DNA of 45,314 bases, from sequence record SRR22947725_1942; one strand, given 5' to 3'. The translations under genes and the position numbers were made by a program. Shown here in pieces: positions 2-28,629 of this stretch. The number at the start of each line of letters is the position of its first letter. Position 1 is the stretch's first letter. The notes beneath the pieces are model-generated. The model did no database searches, was not told where the DNA came from, and worked only from the letters and a program-made list of their open reading frames with translations.

Positions 2-358
2 TTTCGGAACTGGGCTTTTCAGGTGGCCAAGAATGAAGCACTCAATCACCTGACCCGGGCTCGAAGAGATCGCCATGTCTTTAGCGAGAAAATGATTGAA
101 CTCTTAGCCTCAGACAATTCCGAGGAAGCCGATAAACTGGAAGCCCGTCGTCGTGCATTGGATTCATGTGTGGAGAAACTTCCACAGGACGATCGTGAAA
201 TAGTCTCCGGCTGTTATGCCGAAGGTGCCACCGTACAATCCTACGCCAAACAAAAGGGCGGCACCGCCAATAAATTTTATAAAAAGCTCAATCGCATTCG
301 CGGTAAATTACATCAATGTATCGAAGCTCAACTTGGAATAGAGGGGAGCATGATCTGA
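2..358 (+). CDS. ECF sigma-70 factor, Rhodopirellula/Verrucomicrobium type (5'-truncated by window edge)
   Basis: Frame is open from base 2 (FRNWAFQVAKNEAL, region 2) through ALDSCVEKLP...FYKKLNRIRGKLHQCI (region 4). Clear paralogue of 25328-25864. Stop overlaps the next ATG (TGATG). Confidence 0.92.
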   Translation, partial: FRNWAFQVAKNEALNHLTRARRDRHVFSEKMIELLASDNSEEADKLEARRRALDSCVEKLPQDDREIVSGCYAEGATVQSYAKQKGGTANKFYKKLNRIRGKLHQCIEAQLGIEGSMI

Positions 359-1686
359 TGAAAGATAAGGAATTTCAGGAGTTAATTGATCAGTCTCTTA
401 ATGAAACTATTAGTGAGGTTGGTATGAAAGCCTTGGAGGAACGAATGCTTCAAGATCCCCAAGCCCGTATTCACTACCTAAGCTCGGTTGGTCTGCATGC
501 TTCTTTAAGACGTCGATTTTCAAGTCAGCAGGAGGAAGAGGGACCGATTCTGTTTCCCGGGCAAAGCATTTTTACCCGTAAAACAGTGTGGGCGGTTGCC
601 GCCTGCCTGGTTCTGTTTTTTGGGCTGCTTATTTTTCAGGTATCCAATCGGCCATTTGCCGAGGTGGCTCATGTTATCGGTGCATACCGTGCCGATGGAG
701 TTACCTACAAGACTGGGGAAACAGTGGAGCCTGGAATCCTTTCCTTGACTCGTGGGTTATTGAGACTGGATTTTTCAAATGGGGCACGGGTTACGGTGCA
801 GGGACCTGCAGAATTGGAGGTTTTTGATCAAGATCGAGTCCTGCTTCATAAGGGTTTGGTGACTGCGACGATCCCAGAATCCGCGGTTGGTTTTGTGGTC
901 GACACAGTGGCAGCTCATGTGGTGGATCTCGGTACATCATTCGGGGTTTCGGTGAGCGAGAATGGCCAAACTGAGGTATGCGTATTTGATGGCGAGGTGG
1001 AAGTAAGTCTGCCCCGTGAAGCAGGGCTGGAAGAAGTTTCTCATTTAGTAAGGGAGGGGGAATCAATAAGTGCACGTGTTAATTCTTCGGTGATTGATTC
1101 CGTTTCTTATGAAACCAGTCAGTTTGAAAATGCTTTGCCGGTTAATTATGGTGTTCTTCAAACCACCGGTTCCATGCGATTTGTCTCTCCGGGACCAGAC
1201 TTTCATCCCGGGAATTATAAAGATAACGAACACATCGTTGTCTTTCCTGAAAAGAGAGGTTTTCTTTCCAGCGAGAGTATGCGGGTGGATATGATTGACC
1301 CCGGGGAATATGAGAAGTCACATTATGAGGAAAAACCAACCCTTGTTCCTCATCGGGCAATGACAAGTTACTTGTTACAGTTGGATGCCTACCCTGAAGG
1401 AGAGAATCCGAACCGTCGCCGTAGTGTCATTGGACAGATTACATTTGCGAAGCCCATTGTGGGTGTTATCACCGAAGATCGTTTATTAAATGAATCCGAG
1501 GTCGTTTTTGGCATACCCGGGGCAGACTACCCCTCTGCACGAACCATTGAACCCAGACCGGAAGGTGATGAAAGAAAGGGTTTTGATAAGTTAATTCTAA
1601 CCGCGGATAGACATTCGCTTATTCTTGAATTAAGGGAAAACCCCGGACATTTAGACCAAGTAAGAGTATTGGTTGAAGCACAGTAA
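358..1686 (+). CDS. FecR-domain anti-sigma factor with uncharacterised C-terminal periplasmic domain
   Basis: ATG at 358 is coupled to the sigma stop, with GAGGGGAG upstream. N-terminal helical anti-sigma domain, TM segment (VWAVAACLVLFFGLLIF) and FecR motifs VVDLGTSFGV and VCVFDGEVEV. Confidence 0.9.
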   Translation: MKDKEFQELIDQSLNETISEVGMKALEERMLQDPQARIHYLSSVGLHASLRRRFSSQQEEEGPILFPGQSIFTRKTVWAVAACLVLFFGLLIFQVSNRPFAEVAHVIGAYRADGVTYKTGETVEPGILSLTRGLLRLDFSNGARVTVQGPAELEVFDQDRVLLHKGLVTATIPESAVGFVVDTVAAHVVDLGTSFGVSVSENGQTEVCVFDGEVEVSLPREAGLEEVSHLVREGESISARVNSSVIDSVSYETSQFENALPVNYGVLQTTGSMRFVSPGPDFHPGNYKDNEHIVVFPEKRGFLSSESMRVDMIDPGEYEKSHYEEKPTLVPHRAMTSYLLQLDAYPEGENPNRRRSVIGQITFAKPIVGVITEDRLLNESEVVFGIPGADYPSARTIEPRPEGDERKGFDKLILTADRHSLILELRENPGHLDQVRVLVEAQ

Positions 1687-5371: not shown

Positions 5372-6988
5372 ATGAAAAATTTATTTAATTCTTTTTCTTA
5401 TAATGTCTGCCTTTTGAAAACATTGGTAGCGATTTTGGCACTACCTTTCATCTTAAAAGCATCCAAATCTCCAAACTTTGTGTTGGTGTACATGGATGAT
5501 CTCGGTTGGGCTGAGACTTCGGTTGAAATGATCAAAGGGCGCGAGGATACGCGGAGTGATTTTAACCGGACTCCCAATGTGGAAAGACTGGCACGCGAGG
5601 GGATGGTTCTGTCCTCCTGCTACTCACCCTCGGCTTTGTGTGCTCCGTCAAGAAATAGTCTACTCCATGGAATGACGCCTAGTCGGTTGAGGTACACCGT
5701 ACTTTCTGCGGTGGAAGCGAAGAAGCAATATCTTGGACAAATTACGATTCCGCTGGCTTTAAAAAAAGCGAACTCAAATTATCAGACTGCTCATTTTGGC
5801 AAGTGGCACAATGAAAGTATTAAGCCGACTGAAGCTGGATATGATGTCACGGATGGACCGAATGGGAACGGGCCTGGCGATTTTGATGATGACGGCAAGA
5901 CGCATCTCCCTGAAGATGATCCCAAGCGAATCTTTTCGCTTACTGAAAAAAGCATCAACTTCATGAAGGAACAGGTAGCTGCTGAGAAGCCTTTTTATTT
6001 GCAGCTCTCTCATTATGCCAACCATATTTGGCACGACTCGCTCAAGGGAACCCGTGAGAAATACAAGAAACTACCGAAGGGTAAGAAATATGAGAAAAAA
6101 GACGGAATGCCGGACGAAGAAATACCCATTGCCATGTATAACCATGGATGGATCATTAATTACGCTGCCATGCTCGATGATGTGGACCGTGCATTTGGAA
6201 CCTTATTGGATGCGATTGATGAACTTGGGATAGAGGAGGAAACTTATGTGATTTTCACCTCGGATAATGGAGGTGGTTTTCGTGGAAATGCTCCGCTTAA
6301 GGCCGGAAAAGGATGTCTTTATGAAGGCGGCATTCGCATGCCATCCTTCGTTCGTGGGCCTGAAGTAAAGGGAGGGAGTTACTGCAAGGTTCCGATCGTA
6401 CAATGGGACTTTCTACAGACTTTTTATGACTTGGCAGGCGGTACGGATCCACTGCCCAAGGATTTGGACGGAGGTAGCCTGCGTGATGTTTTTCAAAAAG
6501 GAAACAAGGGACGGGTAAAACGTAATACCAAGGAATTAATTTTTCATTTTCCCTGGCATACCGGCGTCGCCGAGTCTGTCATCCGCTCCGGTAATTATAA
6601 ACTGCGCAAGGACCTCGATTCTTTGAACACTGAATTGTTTGATATTAGTAAGGACCTAAGTGAAGAAAATGATTTGGCTGCGGATATGCCCGATCTTGTC
6701 CGGAAGCTTGATAAGAAACGGGCGAAGTACCTGAAAGAGGTTAATGCGGAGACGGTTACCTTAACTCGACGTAATTATGTTGAGCTACTTGAGGGAGGGT
6801 GGATTGAAAATGGAAGGAATCGGTTGGCTAAACTGAAGGCGGAACTGGTTACCGATCCGTCGAATAAGCAAAAAGCTTTTCAGGTGGGTGTTTCCCAGAA
6901 CCATGTTGATTTTCAGGATAAACAACTCGAACGTTCCAAACGGCTGATCCAGATGCACGAGGATCGTGGAACTGCTAACCAAAACTAA
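5372..6988 (+). CDS. S1 formylglycine-dependent sulfatase (tandem copy 1, canonical motifs)
   Basis: PNFVLVYMDDLG, CAPSR, GKWH, SHYANH, FTSDNGG and GKGCLYEGGIRMP. Signal peptide. Confidence 0.95.
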   Translation: MKNLFNSFSYNVCLLKTLVAILALPFILKASKSPNFVLVYMDDLGWAETSVEMIKGREDTRSDFNRTPNVERLAREGMVLSSCYSPSALCAPSRNSLLHGMTPSRLRYTVLSAVEAKKQYLGQITIPLALKKANSNYQTAHFGKWHNESIKPTEAGYDVTDGPNGNGPGDFDDDGKTHLPEDDPKRIFSLTEKSINFMKEQVAAEKPFYLQLSHYANHIWHDSLKGTREKYKKLPKGKKYEKKDGMPDEEIPIAMYNHGWIINYAAMLDDVDRAFGTLLDAIDELGIEEETYVIFTSDNGGGFRGNAPLKAGKGCLYEGGIRMPSFVRGPEVKGGSYCKVPIVQWDFLQTFYDLAGGTDPLPKDLDGGSLRDVFQKGNKGRVKRNTKELIFHFPWHTGVAESVIRSGNYKLRKDLDSLNTELFDISKDLSEENDLAADMPDLVRKLDKKRAKYLKEVNAETVTLTRRNYVELLEGGWIENGRNRLAKLKAELVTDPSNKQKAFQVGVSQNHVDFQDKQLERSKRLIQMHEDRGTANQN

Positions 6989-6993
6989 TTACC

Positions 6994-8703
6994 ATGAATA
7001 CCATTCGTCTAATCACGATATTTTTTCCCTTTGTCGCGTCACTTTGCTTATCGGCAAAGGCACCCAATTTTATTCTCATCTATGCGGATGATCTCGGCTA
7101 TGCGGATACTTCGGTACAGATGATGGATGCAGAGCCCTCAACCCAAAATGCTTTCATTCAAACACCCGGAATCGAGCGGCTCGCTGAAATGGGAGCCCGC
7201 TTTACTGCTGCATACGCTCCATCACCTACCTGTACCGCATCTCGGATCAGTATCCAGCATGGTCAGTCGACCGCCAAGATTCAGTACCGGAATGTTTTTG
7301 ATGTTCTGTCTCAAGTTCAGCGTCCGGACGGGTATGAAGCTGAAATTACCATGGCGGAAATGCTCAAGGAGTCGGGAAAGAATTATATCACCGCTCATTT
7401 TGGCAAGGGATGTAGTGCGATGGGACGATTTGACGAGGCCGGGTATGACCTAACCGATGAAAATCCGGGTGAACCGGGAGGAAATGGTAACGGGCATGGT
7501 TCCTATTGGGATCCGATTAAGGATAAAACCCCGTTTCCTCCGGATAATCCGAAGCGGATGCATTCTTTACGAAAAGATGCTGCAGGCTTCCTTAAGAAAC
7601 ATGCCGGAAAGCAGCCCTTCTTTATGATGGTTTCGCATTACGCTCCTCATATTCCTTTTGTCTGTACTCGGGAGGCTTTTGAACGAACTAAAAAGCGGTG
7701 GATCGCAGCAGGATATGATACGAAAGGCCTGGAAGAACTAAACGATGATCCGGTTAATAACCCGAAAGGAGAAGCAAATAAAAAGATTACCTATGCAGCC
7801 ATGGTGGAGGAAATGGATCTCACATTGGTCGATGTGCTTGATGCACTTGAGCAAGCAGGCGAATTGGAAAATACCTACATCATCTTTACTTCCGACAATG
7901 GAGGCGGACATTCCGAAAAGCGAAAAATTGATGGAGGAATCCGCAGGTTTAATGGTCCGTTACAGGAGGGGAAACGTTCCATTTATGAGGGTGGAATCCG
8001 TGTGCCCACCGTCATATCCGGGCCAGGGATTAAAGCGGGTTCGCAATGCGATGTGCCCATCGTACAGTGGGATTTTCTGCCCACCTTTCATGACCTGAGT
8101 GGGAGTGAGGCACCAATGCCTCCGAATACCGATGGAGGAAGTTTGCGTCAGGTATTTAAGAAAGGGAACAAGGGAAAGGTCAAACGGGTCGCACCGGGAA
8201 TTATCCATCATTATACCTGCCACTACCACCCACCAATCAGTTCAATCATTATGGGCGATTACAAATTAATGCGTCATTTAAACTCCAATGAATTTAAATT
8301 GTTTAATTTGAAAAGCGACTATCGCGAGGAAAAAAATTTGGCATCCGCCATGCCTGAGAAGGTCAAGGAAATGGATCAGGCTTGTCGAAAATATGTCAAG
8401 AAAGTGGATGGCGGAACGGCCGAACAGGTTAGACAGGCACACCATAAACTGATGGATCATTTCAGCCAGCAGTCGGTATATTTCTACAGGAAAAGGTTAG
8501 CGGTCCTGAAGGAACAGAGTCTTCCTGATTTTGAAGACCGAAAGGCAAAAATGCTCAAACAGCTCAACGACGATCTCTTCAAAAATATAGTGAACAAGGA
8601 GAAAACAAATGTACACCGAACCCTTTATTCCTGGAGAGAGGGGCCGGAAAAGAAAGAGGCAGAAAAAAATGCCCGCATAAAATTTGTTGAATTTATAGAT
8701 TAA
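6994..8703 (+). CDS. S1 sulfatase (tandem copy 2, divergent motifs)
   Basis: PNFILIYADDLG, CTASR, GKGC (no His), SHYAPH, FTSDNG and GKRSIYEGGIRVP. Confidence 0.93.
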   Translation: MNTIRLITIFFPFVASLCLSAKAPNFILIYADDLGYADTSVQMMDAEPSTQNAFIQTPGIERLAEMGARFTAAYAPSPTCTASRISIQHGQSTAKIQYRNVFDVLSQVQRPDGYEAEITMAEMLKESGKNYITAHFGKGCSAMGRFDEAGYDLTDENPGEPGGNGNGHGSYWDPIKDKTPFPPDNPKRMHSLRKDAAGFLKKHAGKQPFFMMVSHYAPHIPFVCTREAFERTKKRWIAAGYDTKGLEELNDDPVNNPKGEANKKITYAAMVEEMDLTLVDVLDALEQAGELENTYIIFTSDNGGGHSEKRKIDGGIRRFNGPLQEGKRSIYEGGIRVPTVISGPGIKAGSQCDVPIVQWDFLPTFHDLSGSEAPMPPNTDGGSLRQVFKKGNKGKVKRVAPGIIHHYTCHYHPPISSIIMGDYKLMRHLNSNEFKLFNLKSDYREEKNLASAMPEKVKEMDQACRKYVKKVDGGTAEQVRQAHHKLMDHFSQQSVYFYRKRLAVLKEQSLPDFEDRKAKMLKQLNDDLFKNIVNKEKTNVHRTLYSWREGPEKKEAEKNARIKFVEFID

Positions 8704-8730
8704 TCTCAATTTCAAATAATAGAATAATTT

Positions 8731-10401
8731 ATGAAAAAGTTTTTGTTTCCATTACCTTTTCTCGTACTTTCAGTTTTTACATCCTTTGCCAAGGATTCCC
8801 CCAATTTCATTATTATTTACATGGATGATCTGGGTTGGCATCAGACCTCCGTCCGGATGATGGATTCGGAACCGCTCTCGAAGCATTCTTTTTACAAAAC
8901 ACCAAACGTGGAGCGTCTAGCTGAAATGGGTATGTGCTTTTCGAATGCTTATGCACCCACTGCGACCTGCACTGGATCACGTGTTAGTATTCAATTCGGG
9001 CAAACCTCCGCCCGTACGCAGTATCGATATGTATTTGATGTTTACCATAAAAAGCAGCGCCCCGAGGGTTATGCCGGACAATATTCACTTGCAGATTCCG
9101 TGAAGACTGCAGGTAAGAATTATATTACGGCCCATTTTGGTAAGGGGATGACGGAGAAGCTAAAGATGTTGAATTATGATGTCACCGATGAATACGAAGA
9201 GCATGCACCTAACGGTAATTTACATGGTGAAAAAATTGATATTCCTACCCGCGAGGATCTTCCTCCGGATAATCCCAAGCGAATCTATTCACTTATTGAT
9301 GAATCGATGAAATTTCTTAAGAAAAATGCAGGGAAGCGTCCGTTTATGATGATGGTTTCCCATTATTCTGTTCATGTACCGCATGCGGCATCCAAAAAAT
9401 ACATGGATAAGTGGCAGGCTAAATATGACGCCCTTGAAAAACCCACGGATAAGGAAGAACTCAGGCTTTTCGAAAGGGAATGCAAACCGCTGTATGGGGC
9501 CATGTTGGAAGAAACGGATCAGCACATAGGCATCATTCTTGATTACCTAAAAAAAACGGGCGTTTTGGATAACACTTATATCATATTTACCTCCGATAAT
9601 GGGAGTGAATGTATCCCCCGAACAAAAGAAAATCGTCGCAACAACGGTCCGTTGCAGGAGGGTAAATATTCCTGCTTTGAGGGAGGCATTCGTGTTCCCT
9701 TTATTGTATCTGGACCCGGAATCCGAGACGGTGCCTATTGTGATGTTCCGGTTGTTCAGTGGGATCTTCTTGCCACCCTGCACGACTTGAGTGGAAATGA
9801 GACTCCCTTGCCTGATGATATTGATGGAGGAAGCTTGAAGAATGTCTTTTATAAGGGTAACAAGGGGAAAGTGAGACGCGGTGCACCGGGTATTATTCAT
9901 CATTTTCCTAGTCACTATCAAGTACCAATCAGTGCGATCCGTATAGGAGATTATAAATTTATGCGTAATATGAACACCGATGGAAAAAAACTTTTCAATG
10001 TTGTGGTGGATTACCGCGAGAAGAATGATCTTGCCCAAAAGATGCCTAAAAAAGTGGCTTCTATGGATAAGATTCTACGAACCTATATCGAGGAAGTGGA
10101 CGGGGGTGATGTGAAGGACAGTTACCAGGCTTTTTACGAAACCATGGATGATTTCGAAGGACGAGCGGAAGAGGATCATAGACGAAAGATGAAGAAACTC
10201 GATGAGAACAAGCCTTTTGATTACCAAGAGCAAAAAGCAATTATTGATCAAGAACTCGAGCTTAAGAAACATAAATTTTTCGCAAACCGGGCGATCACAA
10301 AAAAACAGGAAACCTGGCCTGACTGGTACGACACAGCCCGTAAAACCGTTGAAGCCGAAATCGGTATGACCAAAGGTGGGAAGCTGATCAAAAAAAAGTA
10401 A
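8731..10401 (+). CDS. S1 sulfatase (tandem copy 3, divergent motifs)
   Basis: PNFIIIYMDDLG, CTGSR, GKGM, SHYSVH, FTSDNG and GKYSCFEGGIRVP. Confidence 0.93.
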   Translation: MKKFLFPLPFLVLSVFTSFAKDSPNFIIIYMDDLGWHQTSVRMMDSEPLSKHSFYKTPNVERLAEMGMCFSNAYAPTATCTGSRVSIQFGQTSARTQYRYVFDVYHKKQRPEGYAGQYSLADSVKTAGKNYITAHFGKGMTEKLKMLNYDVTDEYEEHAPNGNLHGEKIDIPTREDLPPDNPKRIYSLIDESMKFLKKNAGKRPFMMMVSHYSVHVPHAASKKYMDKWQAKYDALEKPTDKEELRLFERECKPLYGAMLEETDQHIGIILDYLKKTGVLDNTYIIFTSDNGSECIPRTKENRRNNGPLQEGKYSCFEGGIRVPFIVSGPGIRDGAYCDVPVVQWDLLATLHDLSGNETPLPDDIDGGSLKNVFYKGNKGKVRRGAPGIIHHFPSHYQVPISAIRIGDYKFMRNMNTDGKKLFNVVVDYREKNDLAQKMPKKVASMDKILRTYIEEVDGGDVKDSYQAFYETMDDFEGRAEEDHRRKMKKLDENKPFDYQEQKAIIDQELELKKHKFFANRAITKKQETWPDWYDTARKTVEAEIGMTKGGKLIKKK

Positions 10402-10449
10402 TTTACCGACTTATCTCAAAAAGATTTTAATTCTCTACATTAACTACCA

Positions 10450-12057
10450 ATGAAAATAATCACCCTCTCCACTTTAACTCTAATCCTATCGTGTTTCTGT
10501 CTGTACGGAAAGAAAGCACCCAACTTCATCTTGATCTATGCAGATGATCTGGGCTATACCCAGACGAGTGTTCCCATGATGAAGGATCGACCTGAACTTG
10601 GGCATTCCCTTCATCAGACTCCAAACCTGGAAAAGCTGGCGGAGCGTGGTATGCGTTTTTCCAATGCCTATTGTCCTTCTCCGGTTTGCACCTCTTCCCG
10701 GGCAAGCATCCAGTTTGGAATGACCACTGCCCGGGTGGGTTGTGTTTCCATACATGATGTGGTGATGAACAAGAGGCAGGTGGATTTTGAAAAGAAACTT
10801 TCTCTGGCCGAAATGCTCAAGGAATCGGAAAAGGGCTATATCAGCGGTTTTTTTGGCAAGGGCTGTACTCCACTCGGTTGGTTCAAGGATCATGGATATG
10901 ACGAGACTGATTTCATTCACAAACACCCCAATGGCAATGGACATGGGGACTGGTGGGAACCGGCAGACAAAACCCTCATCCCACTCGATGATCCCAAACG
11001 TGTTTTCAGCTTGGCCAAGACTTCCAATGCATTTCTTGAAAAGAGAGCCAAGGATAAGAAACCATTCTTTCTGACGATTTCTCATTATGCCTTGCATGTT
11101 CGAAATATGTCGTTGAAAAGCACCCGCCGTAAATACTTGGATATGATTGCCGAACGGGAGGGTATCGAAGAAAAAATTCCGGATATTTCAAAATTTGATC
11201 CGAATGCAGATGAAATGCCACCGAAAATGAAGAGTCATTGGGAGCGGGCCAACTATGCGGCAATGATGGAAAATATGGATACCTCGATTGGAATGGTGCT
11301 TGATAAACTTAAGGGACTGGGTTTGCACAAAAATACTTTTGTAATCTTTTCTTCCGACAATGGGGGTGGAGCCAGTAATAAACCACTCCAGGGAGGAAAA
11401 GCCAGGATGTGGGAGGGGGGTATTCGGGTACCCATGCTCGTGTCTGGTCCCGGTATCCCCGCCAATTCACAGTGCGATATTCCAGTTGCCCAATGGGATT
11501 ACCTTCCCACCATGCACAAACTTTCGGGAAGTGAGGCCCCACTGCCCAAGGACTTGGATGGCGTAAACTTGCGTTCTGTCCTGAAGAAGGGAAATGAGGG
11601 AAAACTTCCCAAGCGGGACACGGGTCTGGTCTTTCACTTCCCTGCCTACTACACGATCCCGATCACTTCTTATCGGGATGGAGATTACAAACTGATGCGT
11701 CATTTAAACACCGGTGAGATTAAGCTCTTTGATGTGGCCAAGGACATGGGGGAAACCAAGGATTTATCCGCTTCTATGCCAGAGAAAAGAGATTCTATGG
11801 TTCGGAACCTGGATGCTTACTTGAAGAAAGTAGGAGCTTGGACTATGGAGGAAGTCTATGAAACCCGCCTTGATGAATTAAACAAATGGATCGGAGAGAA
11901 GCAGCAGCAGATTTCAGACTGTCAGAAAAAACTTAAGATTTCCCCGGATGACAAACAAATTAAAGTACAATTGAAACAGGCGCAGGATTCCCTTAGCAAA
12001 TTCCAAAAGACCCGTTCCCATGTCCTGGCTAACCAGTCCTCTTCCAACTGGCTGTAA
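10450..12057 (+). CDS. S1 sulfatase (tandem copy 4, divergent motifs)
   Basis: PNFILIYADDLG, CTSSR, GKGC, SHYALH, FSSDNG and GKARMWEGGIRVP. Confidence 0.93.
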   Translation: MKIITLSTLTLILSCFCLYGKKAPNFILIYADDLGYTQTSVPMMKDRPELGHSLHQTPNLEKLAERGMRFSNAYCPSPVCTSSRASIQFGMTTARVGCVSIHDVVMNKRQVDFEKKLSLAEMLKESEKGYISGFFGKGCTPLGWFKDHGYDETDFIHKHPNGNGHGDWWEPADKTLIPLDDPKRVFSLAKTSNAFLEKRAKDKKPFFLTISHYALHVRNMSLKSTRRKYLDMIAEREGIEEKIPDISKFDPNADEMPPKMKSHWERANYAAMMENMDTSIGMVLDKLKGLGLHKNTFVIFSSDNGGGASNKPLQGGKARMWEGGIRVPMLVSGPGIPANSQCDIPVAQWDYLPTMHKLSGSEAPLPKDLDGVNLRSVLKKGNEGKLPKRDTGLVFHFPAYYTIPITSYRDGDYKLMRHLNTGEIKLFDVAKDMGETKDLSASMPEKRDSMVRNLDAYLKKVGAWTMEEVYETRLDELNKWIGEKQQQISDCQKKLKISPDDKQIKVQLKQAQDSLSKFQKTRSHVLANQSSSNWL

Positions 12058-12093: not shown

Positions 12094-12111
12094 CAGCTAA
12101 GTTCTTAGCTG
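12094..12111. promoter_or_regulatory. Perfect 8-bp inverted repeat (operator-like or start-occluding hairpin)
   Basis: CAGCTAAG-TT-CTTAGCTG. The last G is the first base of the GTG start at 12111. Confidence 0.35.
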
Positions 12112-13100
12112 TGGAAATTGAGCAGGTAGATAGGTTTATTTTAGAACGAACCAACGCGAATCGGATTACGAACCGGGTCGAAGTTCAGAGCCTTTGGAGT
12201 GGATACGGGAGTATTCAACGGCTGGACTTGGATGGAGGTGAGTTTTCGAGTATTATCGTGAAGCATGTTCAGCCCGGCAGGGGATCTCACCCAAGGGGAT
12301 GGAATACAGATCTGTCTCACCAGCGAAAACTCAAATCCTACCAGGTGGAAGCAAGTTGGTACCGAAAACAGGATGTGGATTGTAAAAATGGCTTCGCACG
12401 GATTCCGTCTTGCCTGGGAACGAAGAACGTGGGAGAGGAGGTATTACTTCTATTGGAAGATTTAGATGCTTCCGGATTTAGAGGCCGTAAAAGTTTCGTC
12501 AATCAGGCCGAGTGGAAGGCATGCGTTAGTTGGTTAGCTTCCTTCCATGCCGAGAATTTGGATGGGGATGCGACTGGGCTTTGGGAGAGTGGAACCTATT
12601 GGCATCTGGAGACGAGACCCGACGAATTGGAGCGGTTGGAGGATCAGGTGATTAAAAAGGCAGCCCCCGCGATTGATACCAAGTTAAAAACCAATAAGTT
12701 TCAAACCCTTGTTCATGGTGATGCCAAGTTGGCAAACTTCTGTTTCAATTCAGACGGAACTCGGGTGGCGGCAGTCGATTTTCAATATGTGGGTGGCGGT
12801 TGTGGGATGAAAGATTTAGCCTATTTTGTCGGGAGTTGTTTTCGAGATGAGGAAGCGGAAGAAATGGAGGTTGAGGTCCTTAATTATTATTTTACTCAGT
12901 TTCGAAAATCACTTGCACGAATAAATAGTCAAGTGACCGGCGAAGAAGTTGAGCTGGACTGGCGTTCTTTATACCGTGTCGCTTGGGCTGACTTTCATCG
13001 TTTTATGAAAGGTTGGAGTCCAGGGCACTGGAAGCTGAGCGACTACAGTGAACGGGTGACCCGGGAAGTAATTGAATCCTTGTGGGAGGAAAACGCCTGA
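12111..13100 (+). CDS. APH/choline-kinase-like small-molecule phosphotransferase (DUF1679/EcKinase-like)
   Basis: QSLWSGYG glycine loop, IIVK, LLLEDL, Brenner-type motif [10 protein letters not shown] and [17 protein letters not shown] start. Confidence 0.85.
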
Positions 13101-13957
13101 TGGATCTCAATCGGCTAACCATTCATGCGGTAAATGCCGCTCTTGATGCGGGTAATTTGATTCAACGTTATCAGGATATTGAGGTAGAAGTTTTACATAA
13201 GGACGGGGGAAGTACTTATGCTTCTCAAGTGGTGACCGAGGTGGATCAAAAAGCGCAGGATGCGATCTTACGAATTCTTAAGCCGACTTGTTGTGAGTTT
13301 GATTTGGCATTACTAACTGAGGAAAGTGAAGACGACCGTTCCCGATTCGAGAAGAATTATTTTTGGTGTATTGATCCTTTGGACGGCACTCTGCCTTTCA
13401 CTCGAAAGGAACCGGGCTATTCCGTTTCTATCGCTTTGGTTGCTCGGGATGGTTCGCCTCAAATCGGAGTGGTCTACGATCCGGTTCATGATATTCTTTG
13501 GCAGGCAACCAAAGGATACGGGCTGAAAAGGAATGGTATACCATGGAAAATGCAATCGAAGGGAAAAGAGTTGGTCTTTACTTACGATCGAAGTTTTGAA
13601 GATCATCCTGAACGATTACGGGTGTTAAGGGAGTTGGAAAACTATGCTGGCTCAGTTGGACTGCAAGGGGTAGTGGCGACTCAATTCGGTGGAGCTGTGA
13701 TCAATGCCTGTCATTCTCTGGAGTCGGCTCCCGGGTGTCATTTTAAATTTTCCAAGCCACAGGAGGGCGGGGGTAGTATTTGGGATTATGCAGCCACCGC
13801 TTGTCTGTATGAAGAGGCGGGTGCTGAAGTAAGCGATGTGCATGGTAATTCACTTGATTTAAACCGGAATGATTCAACTTTTATGAATCATGGCGGTGCT
13901 GTTTATGCCACGGACCAAGCACTAGCGCTCAAAATTAAGGAAATTCTAAGCCTTTAA
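13100..13957 (+). CDS. Inositol monophosphatase/CysQ family phosphatase
   Basis: VVTEVD, LTEE, CIDPLDGT and WDYAA motifs. ATG overlaps the kinase stop (TGATG), with GGAGG upstream. Confidence 0.9.
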   Translation: MDLNRLTIHAVNAALDAGNLIQRYQDIEVEVLHKDGGSTYASQVVTEVDQKAQDAILRILKPTCCEFDLALLTEESEDDRSRFEKNYFWCIDPLDGTLPFTRKEPGYSVSIALVARDGSPQIGVVYDPVHDILWQATKGYGLKRNGIPWKMQSKGKELVFTYDRSFEDHPERLRVLRELENYAGSVGLQGVVATQFGGAVINACHSLESAPGCHFKFSKPQEGGGSIWDYAATACLYEEAGAEVSDVHGNSLDLNRNDSTFMNHGGAVYATDQALALKIKEILSL

Positions 13958-14051: not shown

Positions 14052-16214
14052 ATGAAAAATCTAATCCTTTTCTTACAAACATCCTGTTTTATTTTAGCCA
14101 GTGTTGCCTTTGGAGCGGAGCGCCCCAACATTCTTTATTTATATGTGGATGACCTCGGTTGGGGCTCGATTGGCCCGAATGGTCAAGCTGAGAGAAAAGC
14201 CGAAGGTAAGCCCTATGTGCTTACACCGAATTTGGACCGCTTGGCGGAGCAGGGAATCAACTTTACCCGAGGTTATGGATGTACGGTTTGCTCACCTGCA
14301 CGGTCATCCCAGCAAACCGGATTTCATCAGGGGTATACCTTTGCTGACCGTAATGATCCGGATAATGCCAAGAAGGCAATTCGTAAGGATGACATTACCA
14401 TGGGTGATGCACTTACCAAGGCTGGATATGCTACCGGATATTGGGGAAAGTGGGGATATGGAGGATCCAAGGATATGCAAAATCCAACTATCGATAATGT
14501 GCAGACTCTCCCCACTTCTCACGGATACAAGTTTGTTGTCGCGGAACTCCATCATGTACGTGCCCATACCTTTTTCCAGCCAACCCTTTGGAATGCACCT
14601 TCGAAACGAAGGCTAGCCGGAGGGTTGGAGCTCAAGGCTAACAGCATGGCAAAATACAGGAAGCAACAGTCTTATTCGAGTTATCCTGCATTTCAAAATC
14701 ATCCTGAATACCCCGATCCTGCCTATTGTGATGATGTTTATGCATTTGCCTGCCTTGATTTTGTGAGGAATCAGGCACAAGAATACAATCGTTCAGGCAA
14801 GCCATTTTTTGGCTTATTTGCGGCTCAGATTCCTCATGCTCCTTTTAAGGAAGTGGAAAAACTTCCGAACTGGGATCATGACTACAAAGACAAATCCTTT
14901 TTTAAAAAATTATCTCCCCAATCCCAACAGTGGTGTGCCATGGTCACCCGGATTGATGCTCATTTTGGTAATATTCTGGAAGCCTTGGATGACCCGAATG
15001 GAGATGGAGATAAGTCAGATTCTGTAGCTGATAATACGCTGGTTGTTTTTCAATCGGATAACGGCGGTCCGGGTGGGAGCAATCGTGAACAATTAGACGC
15101 GAACGGAGGACTTCAGGGATCAAAGGGAAGTATTTATGAAGGAGGTATTCGAGTACCCACAATTATACGATGGTCAGAGAAGATAACTCATCAATCAAAG
15201 CTGAAAAAAGGATCAAGTACTGACTTGGTTATGGATTGTTCGGATTTGCTACCCACTTTTTGTGAACTTGCAGGAGTACCGATTCCTCTTGGGGTGAGCG
15301 GTGTCTCCCTTGCTCCCACTCTTACAGGTAAGGGCATTCAACGACCAAGAGATTATTTGATTCACGAAGCAGGAAATCAGGCGTCGATTATTCAGGGGCA
15401 GTATAAATTAATTCGCCCGCGCGGAGATACAAAGTCATCGGCAAGCAATAAAAAGAAAAAGCGAAAAAAGGAACCCGTTACCATGCTTTTTGATCTCAAT
15501 ACTGATCCTGCAGAGCAAAATAATCTGGCTAATGTTCGCCCACAATTGGTTAAAAAGCTTAATGCACTCCTGACTGCGGAACGGGTGGATGAACCCGCAG
15601 GGTTTGCCAATACCTATCATACGTGGAATGCGAAAACCTATAATGGTTCCCTTGGTTCGTCTTCGAATTGGTCGGAGTATATTTATGAAAATGCGGAAGT
15701 GATGTATATGAAGGAAAGTGGCGCACCCAAATCTCATTGGTGTGCTCGGATTCAAGAGGGAACGGCGGTCGCATTGAAAGAAACTAATTTTCTGGGCCTC
15801 GAGGTAAGCGGAGTTCTTGTCGTAAAGAAGGGAGCAAAAGTAAGTGCAAGAAATGAACTGAGAGTCTCTCATGCAGGGCAAGTCAACCTGCAAGGAGGGA
15901 TGATCGGATCTGATCGTTGGCTTGAGATAAAAAAGGGGGGAGTCCTTAAGGGACACGGAATGATTAAAGGAGATCTTTATAACCAAGGAACATTTGCTTT
16001 GCAGATGGACAAACCTATACAGGTTGATGGTTCCGTGAATTTGTCCGGTAGGTTAGAGTTATTAAAAACAGGTACAATCAATAATGGTGAAAGTTATACC
16101 GTACTTCAGGCCAATTCGGTTTCAGGAGGTTTTGAGAATGATGAGGTGTCAATTGGCGGTAAAAGTTTTTCGGTCTTCTACACTCCGACCTCAGTGACCG
16201 TGAAAGCAAAGTAG
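14052..16214 (+). CDS. S1 sulfatase with ~200-aa C-terminal beta-rich (passenger-like) extension
   Basis: RPNILYLYVDDLG, CSPAR, GKWG, QIPH, QSDNG and KGSIYEGGIRVP. Gly-rich beta repeats follow DPAEQNNL. Confidence 0.92.
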   Translation: MKNLILFLQTSCFILASVAFGAERPNILYLYVDDLGWGSIGPNGQAERKAEGKPYVLTPNLDRLAEQGINFTRGYGCTVCSPARSSQQTGFHQGYTFADRNDPDNAKKAIRKDDITMGDALTKAGYATGYWGKWGYGGSKDMQNPTIDNVQTLPTSHGYKFVVAELHHVRAHTFFQPTLWNAPSKRRLAGGLELKANSMAKYRKQQSYSSYPAFQNHPEYPDPAYCDDVYAFACLDFVRNQAQEYNRSGKPFFGLFAAQIPHAPFKEVEKLPNWDHDYKDKSFFKKLSPQSQQWCAMVTRIDAHFGNILEALDDPNGDGDKSDSVADNTLVVFQSDNGGPGGSNREQLDANGGLQGSKGSIYEGGIRVPTIIRWSEKITHQSKLKKGSSTDLVMDCSDLLPTFCELAGVPIPLGVSGVSLAPTLTGKGIQRPRDYLIHEAGNQASIIQGQYKLIRPRGDTKSSASNKKKKRKKEPVTMLFDLNTDPAEQNNLANVRPQLVKKLNALLTAERVDEPAGFANTYHTWNAKTYNGSLGSSSNWSEYIYENAEVMYMKESGAPKSHWCARIQEGTAVALKETNFLGLEVSGVLVVKKGAKVSARNELRVSHAGQVNLQGGMIGSDRWLEIKKGGVLKGHGMIKGDLYNQGTFALQMDKPIQVDGSVNLSGRLELLKTGTINNGESYTVLQANSVSGGFENDEVSIGGKSFSVFYTPTSVTVKAK

Positions 16215-16386: not shown

Positions 16387-17718
16387 ATGAATAAACAGCC
16401 CGTTTCTCCCCCCTTAAGTCGAAGATCCTTTGTCAGAGCAGCTGCAGTAACATCGGTAGTGGCTGGATTTCCCGCCATTACTCATTCCAAATCTCCCAAT
16501 GGGAAACTTGCGATTGGATTGATCGGGGTAGGGGGGCGAGGTCGCGGACATGTTGCGGGTTGTCGAAATGAACAGGTAGTATCTCTTTGCGATGTGAATA
16601 AGAAAAATCTCGATGGTGCCGCTCGTTTTCCTTGGTGCAAGGATGCCCGCACAACCTCCGACTTTCGTGACTTTTACGAAAAGATTGATGATCTCGACGC
16701 AGTGGTGGTTTCGACCACAGAACATACTCATGCCTTTTCCACGCTTCCTGCCTTGCAGGCAAAAAAACATGTTTATTGTGAGAAACCCCTTACCCGCGAT
16801 GTTCATGAGTGTAGAATTATCACCGAGGCTGCAGCCAAGGCAGGTGTGCAGACTCAAATGGGCACACAGATTCATGCCGGGGAGAATTTCCGTCGGGTGG
16901 TGGAACTGATTCAATCGGGAGCGATTGGGGAAGTACGGGAGGCTCATACCTGGGTGAGTCGGGCATGGGGCTGGAAGAGTTCGGCCGATGATACCCCCAA
17001 AGAAGCTCATCCAATTCCTGAATTTTTAGACTGGGATTTGTGGATCGGTCCTGCTCCTTTTCGTCCCTTTAACAATGTCTATTTCCCTGGCCCCAAATGG
17101 TACCGATGGTGGGACTTTGGAAACGGGACCATGTCAGACTTGGGCAGTCATCGTAACGACCTTCCTTGGTGGGCACTAAAGTTAGACGCACCTCTCACCA
17201 TTGAGCCTCTTACTGGTCCGAAGCCACATCATGATATTGCACCTGCATCTATGAGTGTGAAGTATACCTTTGCCGCTCGCGGTGATGGATACCCAGCGGT
17301 GGAACATACTTGGTATCAGGGAACCGAGAAGCCCAAGATTTGGCATGAGAAAAAGATTCCTCAGTGGAGTAATGGAACCCTTTTCATTGGTGATCAAGGA
17401 ATGGTTCTGTCCGAATACGGAAAGCACACACTTCTCCCCGAGGAAAAGTTCAAAAATTTCGAACGGCCTGAGCGATGGATTGAACCTTCTCCTGGACAAA
17501 TGGCTGAATGGATCCGTGCCTGCAAGGGTGAAGGTCCTGAAGCTTTGTGCAACTTTGCTTATGCCGGGCCGCTCACCGAAGCCAATCATTTAGGCAATGT
17601 TGCCTATCGGGCTCAAAGTAAGCTCGATTGGGATGCCAAGAACATGAAGATTCCCAATGCCCCCGAAGCTGAAAAGTATTTGGGGAGAACTTACCGCAAG
17701 GGTTGGAAACTTGTCTGA
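16387..17718 (+). CDS. Gfo/Idh/MocA family NAD(P) oxidoreductase, Tat-exported
   Basis: SRRSFV Tat motif. [31 protein letters not shown] and [13 protein letters not shown]. Confidence 0.93.
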
Positions 17719-17729
17719 TTATTCATTTT

Positions 17730-18710
17730 ATGAAAATACCATTCACTATTGTATGTGCCCTGCTTTCACTTACCGGTACACTTATATTTTCGAGTTGTTG
17801 CACACCAGCTCCCCAATTTCCTAATGAAGACTCAAGTGATCGGTTGCAAATCATCGACACTCACATCCACCTCTACGATACCAACCGCTCACAAGGGGTG
17901 GATTGGCCTCCGGTGACGGACAAGGTTTTGTATCGTCCAGTTCTTACCGAAGACTTCGATAAAGTAGCAGATCGGGAAGGTATTGCATCCACTGTAATTG
18001 TGGAAGCGAGCAGTCGCGTGGAGGACAACCAATGGATGCTTGATTTGGTTAAGGAAAACCCGGATCGTTACTTGGCATTGGTGGGCAACCTGCCCATTGG
18101 TACGGATGAGTTCGCCGGCTTGATTGACCGGTTCTCCAAAGATTCCCGCTTTGTCGGGCTCCGGATGAGGGATCGCCCAGATGGAGATGCCTTCTTCACC
18201 GATGCGGTTTGGCGAGACTTGGCTATCCTGGAAGAAAAAGGTCTGTCCCTTGATGTCCTTATCAATAATTTTTCCATCGACGAGGTCACTGAGGTTGCCA
18301 AGCGACTACCTGACTTGAAGATCATGATTAATCACTTGGGTGGCTTGAATATTTCCAATGATCCCTTTGATGAAAAATGGAAGGAAGCAATGAAGAAAGT
18401 AGCACTTCATGAAAATGTGTACTGTAAAGTAAGCGGTATTTTCCAGCGAGCCGGGGTAAACCCTACACCCAAGAATCGATCTTTTTACTCTCCCGTTTTT
18501 AAGGTTGTTTTCGACGCCTTTGGAGAAGACCGTGTAGTGTATGGAAGTAACTGGCCCGTAACGGATCGGGGCGGGAGTTATGCTGAGCAGTTAAATATTA
18601 TTAGAGGATACTTTAATCCACCAGTCATGAGGCTTAAAGACAGTATCAAGGGAGAACTTATCGCCAAGAAACTATTCCGAGAAAATGCGATCAGGTTTTA
18701 TGGCCTTTAA
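17730..18710 (+). CDS. Amidohydrolase_2 family protein (L-fuconolactonase-like), probable lipoprotein
   Basis: IIDTHIH, GLRMR, NHLG, YCKVSG and YGSNWP. ATG at 17730 gives MKIPFTIV...FSSCC, a lipobox-like leader. Confidence 0.85.
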   Translation: MKIPFTIVCALLSLTGTLIFSSCCTPAPQFPNEDSSDRLQIIDTHIHLYDTNRSQGVDWPPVTDKVLYRPVLTEDFDKVADREGIASTVIVEASSRVEDNQWMLDLVKENPDRYLALVGNLPIGTDEFAGLIDRFSKDSRFVGLRMRDRPDGDAFFTDAVWRDLAILEEKGLSLDVLINNFSIDEVTEVAKRLPDLKIMINHLGGLNISNDPFDEKWKEAMKKVALHENVYCKVSGIFQRAGVNPTPKNRSFYSPVFKVVFDAFGEDRVVYGSNWPVTDRGGSYAEQLNIIRGYFNPPVMRLKDSIKGELIAKKLFRENAIRFYGL

Positions 18711-19030
18711 TCAATAAAAGAACAGATGTATTCGCAGATGCCATCGTTTACTTCGATGGTAAAGCCACTCTTTTCCGGTACATGAAATGATTGATTCTCG
18801 CCGTAGGAATTTGATTCCTCTGAGCCGTCTAATCTCACATCACAGGTCCCGGCAATGATTTCCATTTGTTCTGCTTGATCCGTATTAAAGTGGTAGCTAC
18901 CCGGATAAATTAATCCAAGTGTTTTTTGGGCACCGTCTGAAAGTACCACGGAATGACTGACCACTTTTCCGTCAAAATAGACATTTGCTTTTGCAGTTAC
19001 TGTGGCTTGGTTGAATTTAATGGTTTCCAT
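18707..19030 (-). CDS. ppnP: Pyrimidine/purine nucleoside phosphorylase (DUF1255)
   Basis: KANVYFDGKVVS, KTLGLIYPGSYHFNT, EQMEIIAG, F-V-P--S-F and EYICSF. ATG at 19030. Confidence 0.9.
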   Translation of the reverse strand: METIKFNQATVTAKANVYFDGKVVSHSVVLSDGAQKTLGLIYPGSYHFNTDQAEQMEIIAGTCDVRLDGSEESNSYGENQSFHVPEKSGFTIEVNDGICEYICSFID

Positions 19031-19039
19031 AAGGATTGA

Positions 19040-19069
19040 GCATGCTGTGGGGATGAAGAAAAAAGTCAA
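19040..19069 (-). promoter_or_regulatory. Possible sigma70 promoter of ppnP
   Basis: TTGACT at 19069-19064. The -10 candidates (CAGCAT at 16-nt spacing, CATGCT at 19-nt spacing) are weak. Confidence 0.3.
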
Positions 19070-19122
19070 GAATGGCTTAATATTACATCCTCTTAAGTTT
19101 ATTTTTAATCTAAGATAATTAG

Positions 19123-19317
19123 GATGATTCCCTTCTCAAGGAGAAGGACCGCTATGCCAGAGCTTTTGTTAGCCATCTTCTTCGGTTCCTTACCTCCAGA
19201 GAACTGACCCCGAGGGATACCTTAGAGGTCGAACGGATCGTGGCTTTGGCAAAACCTTACGATTACCGCTTAAAATCTTTAATTCGAGAAGTTGCTTTGA
19301 GTCAAAGTTTCCTTTAA
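19123..19317 (+). pseudogene. Orphan 3' remnant of a DUF1592/DUF1588/DUF1585 multidomain gene (DUF1585/PSD2 domain)
   Basis: Start-less frame after an in-frame TAG at 19120: DDSLLKEKDRYARAFVSHLLRFLTSRELTPRDTLEVERIVALAKPYDYRLKSLIREVALSQSFL*. This matches the recognisable C-terminal pattern of these PVC proteins. Confidence 0.75.
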
Positions 19318-19334
19318 TTTCTTAAAACTAAGAT

Positions 19335-19973
19335 TTAAAGTTTTCGGATTTTCAGATTTTGAAACCAAACTCGATCATTGTGATCCTGTAAGAGAACGGG
19401 TCCTTCCCAACTACCAAATCCCTCATTCTTACGATACTTACTTTTCTGAAATCTCTTCTTCCAGTCATCTGAACCCCATGTAACCTCAACCACTTTCTTA
19501 CTATTCAGCCAATGTTCTATTTTATGTCCATTGGCTACAATACGACCTGTATTCCATTTACCAACGGGTTTAAGAGTCTTTGAGTCAGGTGCGGCCACTA
19601 GTTCATAGAGAGATCCTGCCCGATGGGTGGGGTTTTTATTATCCCGATGTTTTTGATCATCCAAGACCTGGTACTCCAAACCAAGACTTCCCCGGGTCCG
19701 GTATTTGATTCCACTGTTCCCCGCCTCGGAAATTTTCCATTCGAAAGTTAATTCAAAGTCTTTGAATTTTTCTTTGGTTATGATGTCCCCACTCAAACTT
19801 TTTCGGTGAATCACGCCATTATTTATTTCCCAACCTTTCCCCACTGGCTTTCCTTTAACATTTGTCCATTGCGAAAAGTCATCTTTCTCGAAGAGATCAT
19901 GCATTTTTTCCAGCTTTGCTGCATGAATATTCCCGATTATAAAAAAAGAAAATAGAATTTTATATAATTTCAT
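19335..19973 (-). CDS. DUF1080 (3-keto-disaccharide hydrolase/lyase family) protein, exported
   Basis: DIITKEKFKDFELTFEWKI, GNSGIKY, EYQVLDD, AGSLYE, WNTGRIV and LQDH...VWFQNLKIR. Confidence 0.93.
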   Translation of the reverse strand: MKLYKILFSFFIIGNIHAAKLEKMHDLFEKDDFSQWTNVKGKPVGKGWEINNGVIHRKSLSGDIITKEKFKDFELTFEWKISEAGNSGIKYRTRGSLGLEYQVLDDQKHRDNKNPTHRAGSLYELVAAPDSKTLKPVGKWNTGRIVANGHKIEHWLNSKKVVEVTWGSDDWKKRFQKSKYRKNEGFGSWEGPVLLQDHNDRVWFQNLKIRKL

Positions 19974-23987: not shown

Positions 23988-25331
23988 TTATTGAGCCCCA
24001 AAAACATCAATTTCGCCAAAGAATGTTGGGCCGTGAACTTCAATCAATAAGTATCTATAGCAACCAATCTGTCCCTTCGAGGCAAAAATAGAGCATGCTT
24101 GTTGTGCGGGTCGATCGATGTCTTCCTGGACATCAAAGAAACGGTCACTATTTACTCTTACTATTCTGTCCCATCCCGTTTCGTTGGCTGGCAGATTTAA
24201 ATCTGGCAGTTCTTCATCCTTTAGCCCGTATAGAGTAAATACCTGTTTGGCTCTATTTTTATGATCATTTATTCTTTGGTTTTGATGCCAGGAATAGGAA
24301 TTTACCTTATCAATTCCTATTTCTCTACCCAAATCAATGAGTAAATTCCCGTAAGTCCCGTCTGTTTTTTGTAAAAAGACTGATTCTTTTGGAGAATCCG
24401 GTTCAGTCTGACCTTTTCCATCTAGTAGGGACATGGGATTTACTTCCCAGTTCGGTTGCTTAAGGACCTTCCCTTTTCCTACCGAAACACTTGCGAGTCC
24501 TCTTGAAGTATCTGCATAATCATGGTCACTCGGGGGTTGGATTGTAGGGAAAATAAATAATTTCGATTCATCTCCTGATTCAATTTTAGTCAAATATTTT
24601 CGCTTTCCTGGTTCCACAAATATCGCTTCTCCAGCCTGAATAATGTGGTGTTCATGGTCTAGCTCTACAATCAAATTAACTTTCCCTTGAGTTACATCCA
24701 GTCGACTTAACCCGTCTGGGCCAACACAAGCAGCAAAGGCGGTTCCCAGGTCAACGAAGGTAGAGCTTGGAGTTTTAATTGAAAAACCTTGTGATTCCTT
24801 TGTGTCTGCTATGACGGCAGCCCTACCTAGAGTAAGAAAAGCCGAGTTGGCCGAATTGACCTCAACGATTGAAGGCCCTCTCAATTTCATGATAGCCCCA
24901 GTATTAAAATGAATGTGAGCGACTCCTGATGACAGCTCAATGCGATCATTCACAAAAAGAGAACTCCCCTTAGCTACTTCATGGCCGGGGTTCATCCACC
25001 TGCAATTGTCAAGTTCTTCAAAATGGGCAACGGCCAGTTTGAGCGGACTTTCACTGACCGAGTTTACTGATTTAAATTTTAAGGCAAAAAGAAAGATTAA
25101 AATCGCTGCAATCGATGCCCAAACAGGCCAATAGGAAATAAGGGAAGTTTCCTTCTTTGCTGGAGTAATGGAGTAAGGGAGTGCGGCATCAAGACGTGCG
25201 TAAGCGAGAAAATCTTTTCTAAGTTGATTGTCTTTTTGCATCTTTTGTTCGAGAAGTTGGATATCATCCGTACTCGCTTGTGAATCAAGGTAAAGCCTGA
25301 CGAGTTCCAAGTCTTCTTTAGATGATTTCAT
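23988..25331 (-). CDS. FecR-domain anti-sigma factor with discoidin/galactose-binding-like C-terminal domain
   Basis: TM segment WASIAAILIFLF and FecR motif FVDLGTAF...LDVTQGKV. C-terminal LLDG..LLIDLG..VNSYSW..RYLLIEV..FGEIDVF. ATGA overlap with the sigma gene. Confidence 0.88.
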   Translation of the reverse strand: MKSSKEDLELVRLYLDSQASTDDIQLLEQKMQKDNQLRKDFLAYARLDAALPYSITPAKKETSLISYWPVWASIAAILIFLFALKFKSVNSVSESPLKLAVAHFEELDNCRWMNPGHEVAKGSSLFVNDRIELSSGVAHIHFNTGAIMKLRGPSIVEVNSANSAFLTLGRAAVIADTKESQGFSIKTPSSTFVDLGTAFAACVGPDGLSRLDVTQGKVNLIVELDHEHHIIQAGEAIFVEPGKRKYLTKIESGDESKLFIFPTIQPPSDHDYADTSRGLASVSVGKGKVLKQPNWEVNPMSLLDGKGQTEPDSPKESVFLQKTDGTYGNLLIDLGREIGIDKVNSYSWHQNQRINDHKNRAKQVFTLYGLKDEELPDLNLPANETGWDRIVRVNSDRFFDVQEDIDRPAQQACSIFASKGQIGCYRYLLIEVHGPTFFGEIDVFGAQ

Positions 25332-25864: not shown

Positions 25865-25876
25865 TCTAATTAAAAT

Positions 25877-25900: not shown

Positions 25901-25916
25901 GAGAAATTTTAGATTG

Positions 25917-28610: not shown

Positions 28611-28629
28611 TCGGAAGTGGAGCAGGGAT

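Follow-up and report, generated by a model that had tools for sequence, protein, structure and literature searches.

Tandem sulfatases lacking the GKWH histidine in a marine Opitutia bacterium look like a conserved active-site variant of a known enzyme family

Introduction

The closest described counterparts of the enzymes considered here are carbohydrate sulfatases of SulfAtlas subfamily S1_16, which belongs to the formylglycine-dependent family S1. The best matches in sequence and fold are AMOR_S1_16A (PDB 9FO1), a thermophilic kappa-carrageenan sulfatase, and the Hungatella hathewayi sulfatase 6UST; BT3057 (PDB 7OZ9), a 4S-Gal/GalNAc sulfatase of Bacteroides thetaiotaomicron, has the same S1 fold. 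Pseudomonas aeruginosa AtsA (also designated PAS; 1HDH) shares the catalytic scaffold but represents a distant subfamily and is an aryl rather than a glycan sulfatase; its His115 is the His of the motif GKWH, designated HisA here. We compared with these systems four tandem sulfatase genes (copies 1 to 4, c1–c4) located in sequence record SRR22947725_1942, which was analysed as one stretch of 45,314 nucleotides (the window). HisA is present in c1 and absent in c2–c4, which read GKGC, GKGM, and GKGC, respectively, and which carry a His in the following loop, NGN(G/L)HG (the loop His). The original prediction, made from the sequence alone, had proposed a rewired active site in which the catalytic His moved from GKWH to this loop. 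We consider it probable, instead, that c2–c4, like c1, are active glycan sulfatases resembling the S1_16 enzymes, with HisA expendable and the loop His serving to position the sugar.

Both histidines have been described in S1_16 enzymes. In PMC11760155, His125 (corresponding to HisA) and His149 (corresponding to the loop His) are presented as conserved, S1_16-characteristic residues near the S0 sugar. For BT3057, Luis et al. (bioRxiv 2021.07.23.453482) report a hydrogen bond between N-delta-1 of H182 and O6 of the Gal/GalNAc in the 0 subsite, and an activity of the H182A variant that is down about 20-fold; the same paper gives Gly at the H182 position in BT3796 and Val as the commonest residue at the Trp79/Trp109 position in marine S1_16 sequences. 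As for HisA itself, the H115A variant of PAS retains measurable activity, enough for detailed kinetics (bioRxiv 327643). Below, LysA and LysB denote the GK Lys and the second GK Lys, HisB denotes the sulfate-binding His, and residue numbers are those of c2.

Two Active-Site Configurations in One Tandem Array

The four co-oriented open reading frames (Table 1) are spaced by 5–48 bases, have hydrophobic, signal-like N termini, and all match Pfam PF00884 at 118–135 bits (gathering cut-off 25). As the original prediction had stated, c1 is canonical, with all motifs and coordinates correct. The loss of the signature Pro and of both the Trp and the His of GKWH in c2–c4 was borne out by reading of the motifs, and the four-copy alignment confirmed that there is an insertion after YDxTD (6, 5, and 4 residues in c2, c3, and c4, respectively) and that the loop His aligns with Pro168 of c1. 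The alignment likewise agreed with the predicted retention of the other catalytic positions, as no copy deviates at DD, the Cys, the Arg, either GK Lys, the His residues of SHYxxH, or DN. HisB was assigned to the second His of SHYxxH (c2 H219) because it matches His201 of 9FO1. Beyond the window, the nucleophile Cys and the motif Arg are present in all full-length orthologue rows as well as in c1–c4, the Ca2+ ligands D32, D33, D301, and N302 are invariant in c1–c4 and in nearly all homologues, and the sulfate ligands K138, H219, and K327 are invariant in 74/74 rows of the homologue alignment.

A search with c2 yielded 6234 proteins at E <= 1e-20, and the best 120 clusters (at least 66% identical) were scored; for c1, the best 120 clusters (at least 67% identical) were scored in the same way. 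GKG[A/C/S] was found in 120/120 of the best c2-query clusters, while GKWH and the loop Pro were each found in 120/120 of the best c1-query clusters. The loop His, for which conservation among GKG[C/M] homologues had been raised as a check, is indeed conserved; it is present in 118/120 of the c2-query clusters (the exceptions being one Gln and one Arg) and, after clustering, in 35 of the 36 GKG representatives of the tree described below. These fixed motif states also bore out the view that c2–c4 are not decaying. The sequence states of the c1 and c2 lineages thus appear to be under selection, and c2–c4 appear to form a large, conserved clade with an active-site wall unlike the canonical one; single 90%-identity clusters of this clade reach 650 member sequences.

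At 95% identity or more, c1, c2, c4, and stretches of c3 are represented in contigs assembled from the RNA libraries of three studies, with one contig spanning the c1–c2 junction. Cover over c3 is gapped at about 8940–9160, gaps that are no evidence of silence. The contigs fit with transcription of the cluster; DNA can occur in such libraries.

If loss of the motif Pro blocked formation of formylglycine (FGly), c2–c4 could be non-catalytic, glycan-binding or regulatory pseudo-enzymes, an explanation that we regard as very improbable. It would account for the loss of two signature features (HisA and Pro), and the middle residue of the FGly motif, which is accepted in c1 (Pro) and c2 (Ala), falls outside the published [PA] in c3 (Gly) and c4 (Ser); Gly and Ser at this position each occur in <1% of the 4058 S1 sequences of PMC5066984, and Ala is accepted there (consensus C/S-x-P/A-x-R). 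The nearest genome (G001; 3.7 Mb, 96% complete) has genes with the domain of the formylglycine-generating enzyme (FGE; best E 1e-75), and no match to the anaerobic sulfatase-maturating enzyme (anSME) model TIGR03942 was found in it. FGE is considered to prefer Pro in the FGly motif, and bacterial FGEs may take Ala instead; a literature search on its tolerance of CT[A/G/S]SR found nothing usable. On the other hand, Cys80, Arg84, and all metal and sulfate ligands are invariant over hundreds of clusters, although a binding protein would have no need of them. In addition, the Pro position toggles among close orthologues, between Ala and Gly in the c2 group (71 vs. 47 of the best 120 clusters, with two truncated rows unread) and between Ser and Pro in the c4 group, while everything else stays fixed, suggesting a relaxed position. 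We predict that c1–c4 are active as sulfatases.

Placement in S1_16 and Origin of the Loop Histidine

Comparisons by sequence identified 6UST, 6USS, 7OZA, 9FO1, and 7STT as the best solved relatives of c2 and 6UST, 9FO1, and 7STT as those of c1; c2 matches 6UST with E 4.1e-50, and a HisA-less clade member, P0125, matches 9FO1 with E 4.7e-69. An AlphaFold2 model of c2 (mean predicted local distance difference test score 93.8) retrieved S1_16 entries first in Foldseek (6UST, 9FO1, 7STT, 7OZA, and 6USS), followed by 7OZ9 at rank 25 (E 1.5e-26); AtsA/PAS, which serves as the mechanistic reference and has in His115 the residue absent from c2–c4, is more remote (E 7e-22, 22% identity). The top S1_16 matches (6UST, 9FO1, 7OZA, and 7OZ9) show 25–28% identity, and c1–c4 are likely members of this subfamily. 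No NCBIfam equivalog model reaches its cut-off.

The S1_16 pocket residues are split between the copies, with the loop His in c2–c4 and HisA only in c1; at the Trp79/Trp109 position, c2 and c3 have Val (Val101 in c2, vs. Trp109 in BT3057), c4 has Ile, and c1 has Leu. 9FO1 and 6UST share with c2 the same Ca2+ and sulfate ligands and keep the GHP His (His149), but they differ from c2, to which they are only 27–28% identical, in having GKWH, CxPxR, and no insertion before the loop His. Similarly, the BT3057 loop IGHPGSYY matches NGHGSYW of c2 at an equal distance from G[FY]D, whereas BT3057 differs from c2–c4 in its Ser nucleophile, its motif Pro, and its probable retention of HisA; c2–c4, for their part, lack HisA and have a longer loop ahead of the loop His.

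With the Gly in the conserved strand G[FY]D as the start of the count, index 12 is His in 6UST (GFDVNIGGCSWGHPHEG), 9FO1 (GFDINVAGTFRGHPESY), and 7OZ9/BT3057 (GFDVNIAGSGIGHPGSYY), as well as in HisA-less relatives without the insertion (e.g., P0125, GYDISDGPMGNFHGDW); it is Pro in c1 and Gly in the BT3796-type sequence 6USS, the latter in agreement with the Gly that Luis et al. give for BT3796. As 6UST and 9FO1 read GKWH, both have HisA and the loop His together, and the same probably applies to BT3057, which would read GKAH by analogy with 6USS (HCGKAHFG). A reading in which BT3057 lacks GK..H, with AHFGCMG opposite AHFGKWD of P0125, was rejected; judging from HCGKAHFG of 6USS, AHFG of BT3057 most likely follows GK, which would put HisA in KAH, and the residues before 153 are outside the alignment. 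To identify H182 as the GHP His is to assume that chain position 181 and the numbering of the paper differ by one; no other His is found within ten residues. We also dropped the alternative that H182 is the residue two after the loop His, as the only nearby His is the GHP His at chain position 181; this alternative is further disfavoured by the Gly at the same loop index in the BT3796-type sequence.

Because the loop His matches the GHP His of S1_16 enzymes that also hold HisA, differential retention would explain the two configurations; an ancestor with both His residues seems to have given rise to c1 by loss of the loop His and to the c2–c4 lineage by loss of HisA. The proposal that the loop His was gained or had migrated did not hold, since the same His coexists with HisA in solved S1_16 enzymes.

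Recurrent Loss of HisA and Its Relation to the Loop Histidine

Glucosamine-6-sulfatase-type enzymes read GKYL. Other S1 lineages without the motif His (the PROSITE PS00149 pattern ends [HL] and the SulfAtlas pattern ends [HLGN]) retain an aromatic residue before the variable position, whereas the GKG clade has Gly in place of that aromatic residue and Cys, Ala, Met, Ser, Ile, or Val at HisA, which is outside the published pattern. The founding alignment of SulfAtlas (PMC5066984), with 4058 S1 sequences, gives a conservation of 81% for His115 and of 59% for the Trp before it, and its revised pattern has [WMYNLF]-[HLGN] as the last two positions; with HisA conserved to no more than 81%, its lack does not exclude S1 membership. 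From the 150 best 50%-identity representatives around c2, we retained 140 domain rows after removal of those gapped at the GK Lys, HisA, or loop column. HisA is absent in 39 of these 140 rows, 26 of which also lack the loop His, and both residues are present in six. Within the window, HisA is absent in four of the seven sulfatases, because an unrelated sulfatase of 720 amino acids (Table 1) also reads GKWG. Loss of HisA is, by these counts, recurrent rather than rare, and it had already been documented statistically in SulfAtlas in 2016. Our literature search found no description of a HisA-less S1_16-like clade or of a relocated His, and a characterised HisA-less enzyme from this branch appears to be missing.

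A tree of 70 rows (62 clusters at 80% identity, drawn from 335 clade rows, and eight outgroups) was constructed by an IQ-TREE quick search under a mixture model after exclusion of the trait columns. In this tree, the GKG clade (36 rows) has as its sister the c1 clade (10 rows, each with GKWH and without the loop His), a grouping with a Shimodaira–Hasegawa-like approximate likelihood ratio test value of 92. Next to these two clades is a Planctomycetota group of 10 rows with GKW[G/D], three with and seven without the loop His, and GKWH lineages are placed outside all three groups. The minimum number of changes on this tree is five for HisA, five for the loop His, three for the motif Pro, and two for the Trp. 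The insertion and W139G (always with Q212M) are synapomorphies of the GKG clade. Basal lineages of this clade keep the Pro, reading CTPSR with GKGM, GKGI, GKGV, or GKGC, so Pro loss came later than HisA loss. Therefore, while the four changes that the original prediction listed as shared are all present in c2–c4, they do not represent a single package.

Removal of W139 and H140 is part of a wider remodelling around HisA. A second pocket His, that of "PHY" in the C-terminal subdomain (column 409; Cys409 in c2, 8218–8220), is found in 56/118 rows with HisA and in essentially no row without it, and thus tends, at the level of the alignment, to go along with HisA.

One explanation for this remodelling is compensation, in which, after loss of HisA, the insertion of 3–6 amino acids moved the pre-existing loop His inward to fill the room left by W139G and H140C/A/M, so that this His now serves as the base that regenerates formylglycine. 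We consider this unlikely, and it is just as doubtful that the regenerating base is a recruited pocket residue in the broader sense, be it the insertion-repositioned loop His or another group, rather than the GKWH His. Several observations nevertheless weigh against a mere sugar-positioning role for the loop His. Among the 335 clade rows (500 bits or more, not deduplicated, with counts dominated by three large orthologue groups), 183 have the loop His without HisA, 139 have HisA without the loop His, 13 have neither, and none has both; this near-exclusive pattern is what a compensatory swap would predict. Across the representatives, the association of HisA and the loop His is nominally significant (Fisher p 8.5e-5, relatedness ignored). 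The GKG clade has its 3–6 amino acid insertion just before the loop His and has lost the bulky W139 and H140, and the loop could, given these changes and the loss at column 409, sit differently than it does in BT3057. Structural papers call the S site invariant, and HisA is completely conserved among the solved structures compared in that literature. Compensation would also be consistent with the strong conservation of the loop His in the GKG clade, with the pairing of W139G and Q212M, which suggests repacking, and with the homologous His of BT3057, which is already within reach of the sulfated sugar.

Other evidence speaks against compensation and, more generally, against a migrated catalytic His. 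The loop His dates back to the ancestor, and a sugar-binding function alongside HisA is documented for it. HisA-less lineages without the loop His persist; in addition to the 26 of 39 representative domains, these include 8/12 GKW[G/D] rows, rows with TNNG[D/E]G (including a cultured Botrimarina), and P0124 (GKGV/NGNGGG), which belongs to the clade itself. Such lineages are kept across genomes, and the P0124 type is found beside c2 orthologues in two loci (L011 and L012). The loop His is also present in HisA-less enzymes without the insertion (P0125, P0134, L063, and L065), indicating that insertion and His are untied. Independent contrasts of HisA against the loop His number five on all branches and two on well-supported branches, and a contrast test has no power because there are just these two.

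The remodelling around HisA can equally be read as an enlarged or reshaped substrate pocket. No other conserved His or base common to all HisA-less enzymes was found in the alignments, and conservation of His135 and His89 does not extend to c4 or c3. In 23/45 rows with neither HisA nor the loop His, a count uncorrected for phylogeny, the motif Arg is immediately followed by another Arg (C-x-P-x-R-R; aligned with c2 residue 85, 7246–7248); rows with HisA mostly have Ala, Asn, or Tyr in this column, and the Arg is not found in c2–c4. This Arg is a possible alternative compensating residue in sulfatases lacking both His residues.

Under the explanation that we favour, c1–c4 would encode secreted carbohydrate sulfatases of the formylglycine-dependent family S1, in a conserved cluster with a single orientation, and c1 and the c2–c4 lineage would be old sister paralogues. 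The GKG clade has swapped the Trp-His of GKWH for Gly and a small residue and lengthened the next loop, and would have kept everything else needed for Ca2+ binding, formylglycine formation, and binding and cleavage of the sulfate ester. The loop His is the ancestral S1_16 pocket His, with a substrate-positioning role suggested by BT3057, and would not be a relocated general base. HisA normally assists collapse of the sulfo-enzyme hemiacetal as well as positioning of the Lys and the substrate; in the GKG clade, we infer that the assisted step is slower or is carried out by solvent or neighbouring groups. HisA seems expendable enough for repeated losses to have occurred in this part of the family.

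Host, Gene Order, and Neighbouring Genes

The host of c1–c4 is a marine bacterium of the Opitutia, either Candidatus Seribacter sulfatis or one close to it; in a scan of a genome collection, c2 shares 99% identity with a sequence from the former (L006). Relatives of c2 with 58–93% identity are found in metagenome-assembled genomes (MAGs) labelled Opitutia, Puniceicoccaceae, Coraliomargaritaceae, Akkermansiaceae, Kiritimatiellia, Planctomycetaceae, Rhodopirellula, and Rubripirellula; these labels are those of bins, some of which may be wrong. A tandem of c1 followed by c2 is present in at least 10 of 74 loci from Verrucomicrobiota and Planctomycetota (L006, L009, L011, L012, L015, L016, L017, L019, L043, and L044). 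The order c2-c3-c4 recurs in three loci (L004, L039, and L064), which also contain the c3 orthologues with identical motifs, and c4 orthologues are present in at least 11 loci, some reading CTPSR in place of CTSSR. Orthologues of c1 and c2 with 63–74% identity and the same gene order are found in MAGs of both Planctomycetota and Verrucomicrobiota (L009, L013, L014, L017, L043, and L044, compared with L004–L012 and L015–L020), which suggests either transfer of the cluster between phyla or binning errors.

Table 1. Coordinates and sequence features of the sulfatase genes and selected neighbouring genes in the window.
Feature	Coordinates	Strand	Description
FecR-like (anti-sigma type) gene	316–1686	+	Pfam FecR E 5.1e-06; upstream of the array
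c1	5372–6988	+	538 aa; CAPSR 5639–5653; GKWH 5798–5809 (His codon 5807); loop NGNGPG 5861–5878
c2	6994–8703	+	569 aa; CTASR 7231–7245; GKGC 7402–7413; loop NGNGHG 7483–7500; His168 7495–7497
c3	8731–10401	+	556 aa; CTGSR 8968–8982; GKGM 9139–9150; loop NGNLHG 9211–9228; His 9223–9225
c4	10450–12057	+	535 aa; CTSSR 10687–10701; GKGC 10855–10866; loop NGNGHG 10930–10947; His 10942–10944
EcKL/APH-like kinase gene	12111–13100	+	Downstream of c4
IMPase/CysQ-like phosphatase gene	13082–13957	+	Best NCBIfam match CysQ (PAP phosphatase), 94.8 bits (cut-off 228.8)
Fifth sulfatase, other lineage	14052–16214	+	720 aa; CSPAR; GKWG (YWGKWGYG); without HisA

Upstream of the array, synteny of the type FecR-c1-c2 or FecR-c1-c4 was found in L006, L009, L042, L044, and L054, with FecR directly 5′ of the c1 orthologues. 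The FecR-like gene of the window is separated from c1 by a DUF7133-cytochrome c gene and a ThuA-like gene, which were also seen in L052, and a second set of DUF7133-cytochrome c, ThuA, and extracytoplasmic function (ECF) sigma genes is located at 25331–29667 on the minus strand. Downstream of c4, the kinase-like gene and the gene of the inositol monophosphatase (IMPase) family overlap by 19 bases; this pair also follows c4 in L004, L005, L036, L038, L039, and L064, and the 720-aa sulfatase comes after the pair in L004, L036, L039, and L064. Genes encoding GFO/IDH/MocA oxidoreductases, amidohydrolase-2 proteins, 3-keto-disaccharide hydrolases, and xylose-isomerase-like TIM barrel proteins are found around sulfatases at 16387–19973 and 29727–34080; this is the gene set of the oxidative (3-keto-glycoside) route of sugar breakdown.

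The kinase-like and CysQ-like phosphatase genes that follow c4 bear on a further explanation, in which the GKG clade acts on esters other than O-sulfates (sulfamates, phosphate esters, or phosphonate esters) and loss of HisA is part of that shift in chemistry. Phosphonate monoester hydrolases, which are members of the same superfamily, are not known to have His at the HisA position, and the side of the pocket around HisA is remodelled in the GKG clade. We nonetheless judge such a shift improbable. LysA, LysB, HisB, the Ca2+ ligands, and the Cys-x-x-x-Arg core are all retained, and the NCBIfam model PehA (phosphoric/sulfuric ester hydrolase) scores just 50–60 bits against a cut-off of 900. Moreover, the genes occur among canonical sulfatases in sulfatase-rich genomes (e.g., 154 PF00884 matches in G001), HisA loss is scattered across many sulfatase lineages, and no sequence pointers to sulfamate or phosphoester chemistry were found in c1–c4.

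Conclusions

Sulfatases act as gatekeepers when sulfated algal polysaccharides are degraded in the ocean, and the clade that includes c2–c4 is common, being found in many MAGs of marine Verrucomicrobiota and Planctomycetota. The altered active site of c2–c4 is real and conserved, and it looks like a variation within a known enzyme family rather than the mark of a rewired enzyme. The S site is treated as invariant in papers on carbohydrate-sulfatase structures, yet about a fifth to a quarter of the family is without one of its His residues. The c1/c2 pair represents a natural experiment, as these sister paralogues in one operon-like cluster differ in the presence of HisA, and it bears both on the contribution of HisA and on the role of the S1_16 loop His. 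The recruited-base reading, if true, would represent a natural relocation of a catalytic residue, with the adjoining canonical sister paralogue as a built-in control. If c2–c4 are ordinary active sulfatases, annotation filters that require GKWH or CxPxR discard real enzymes.

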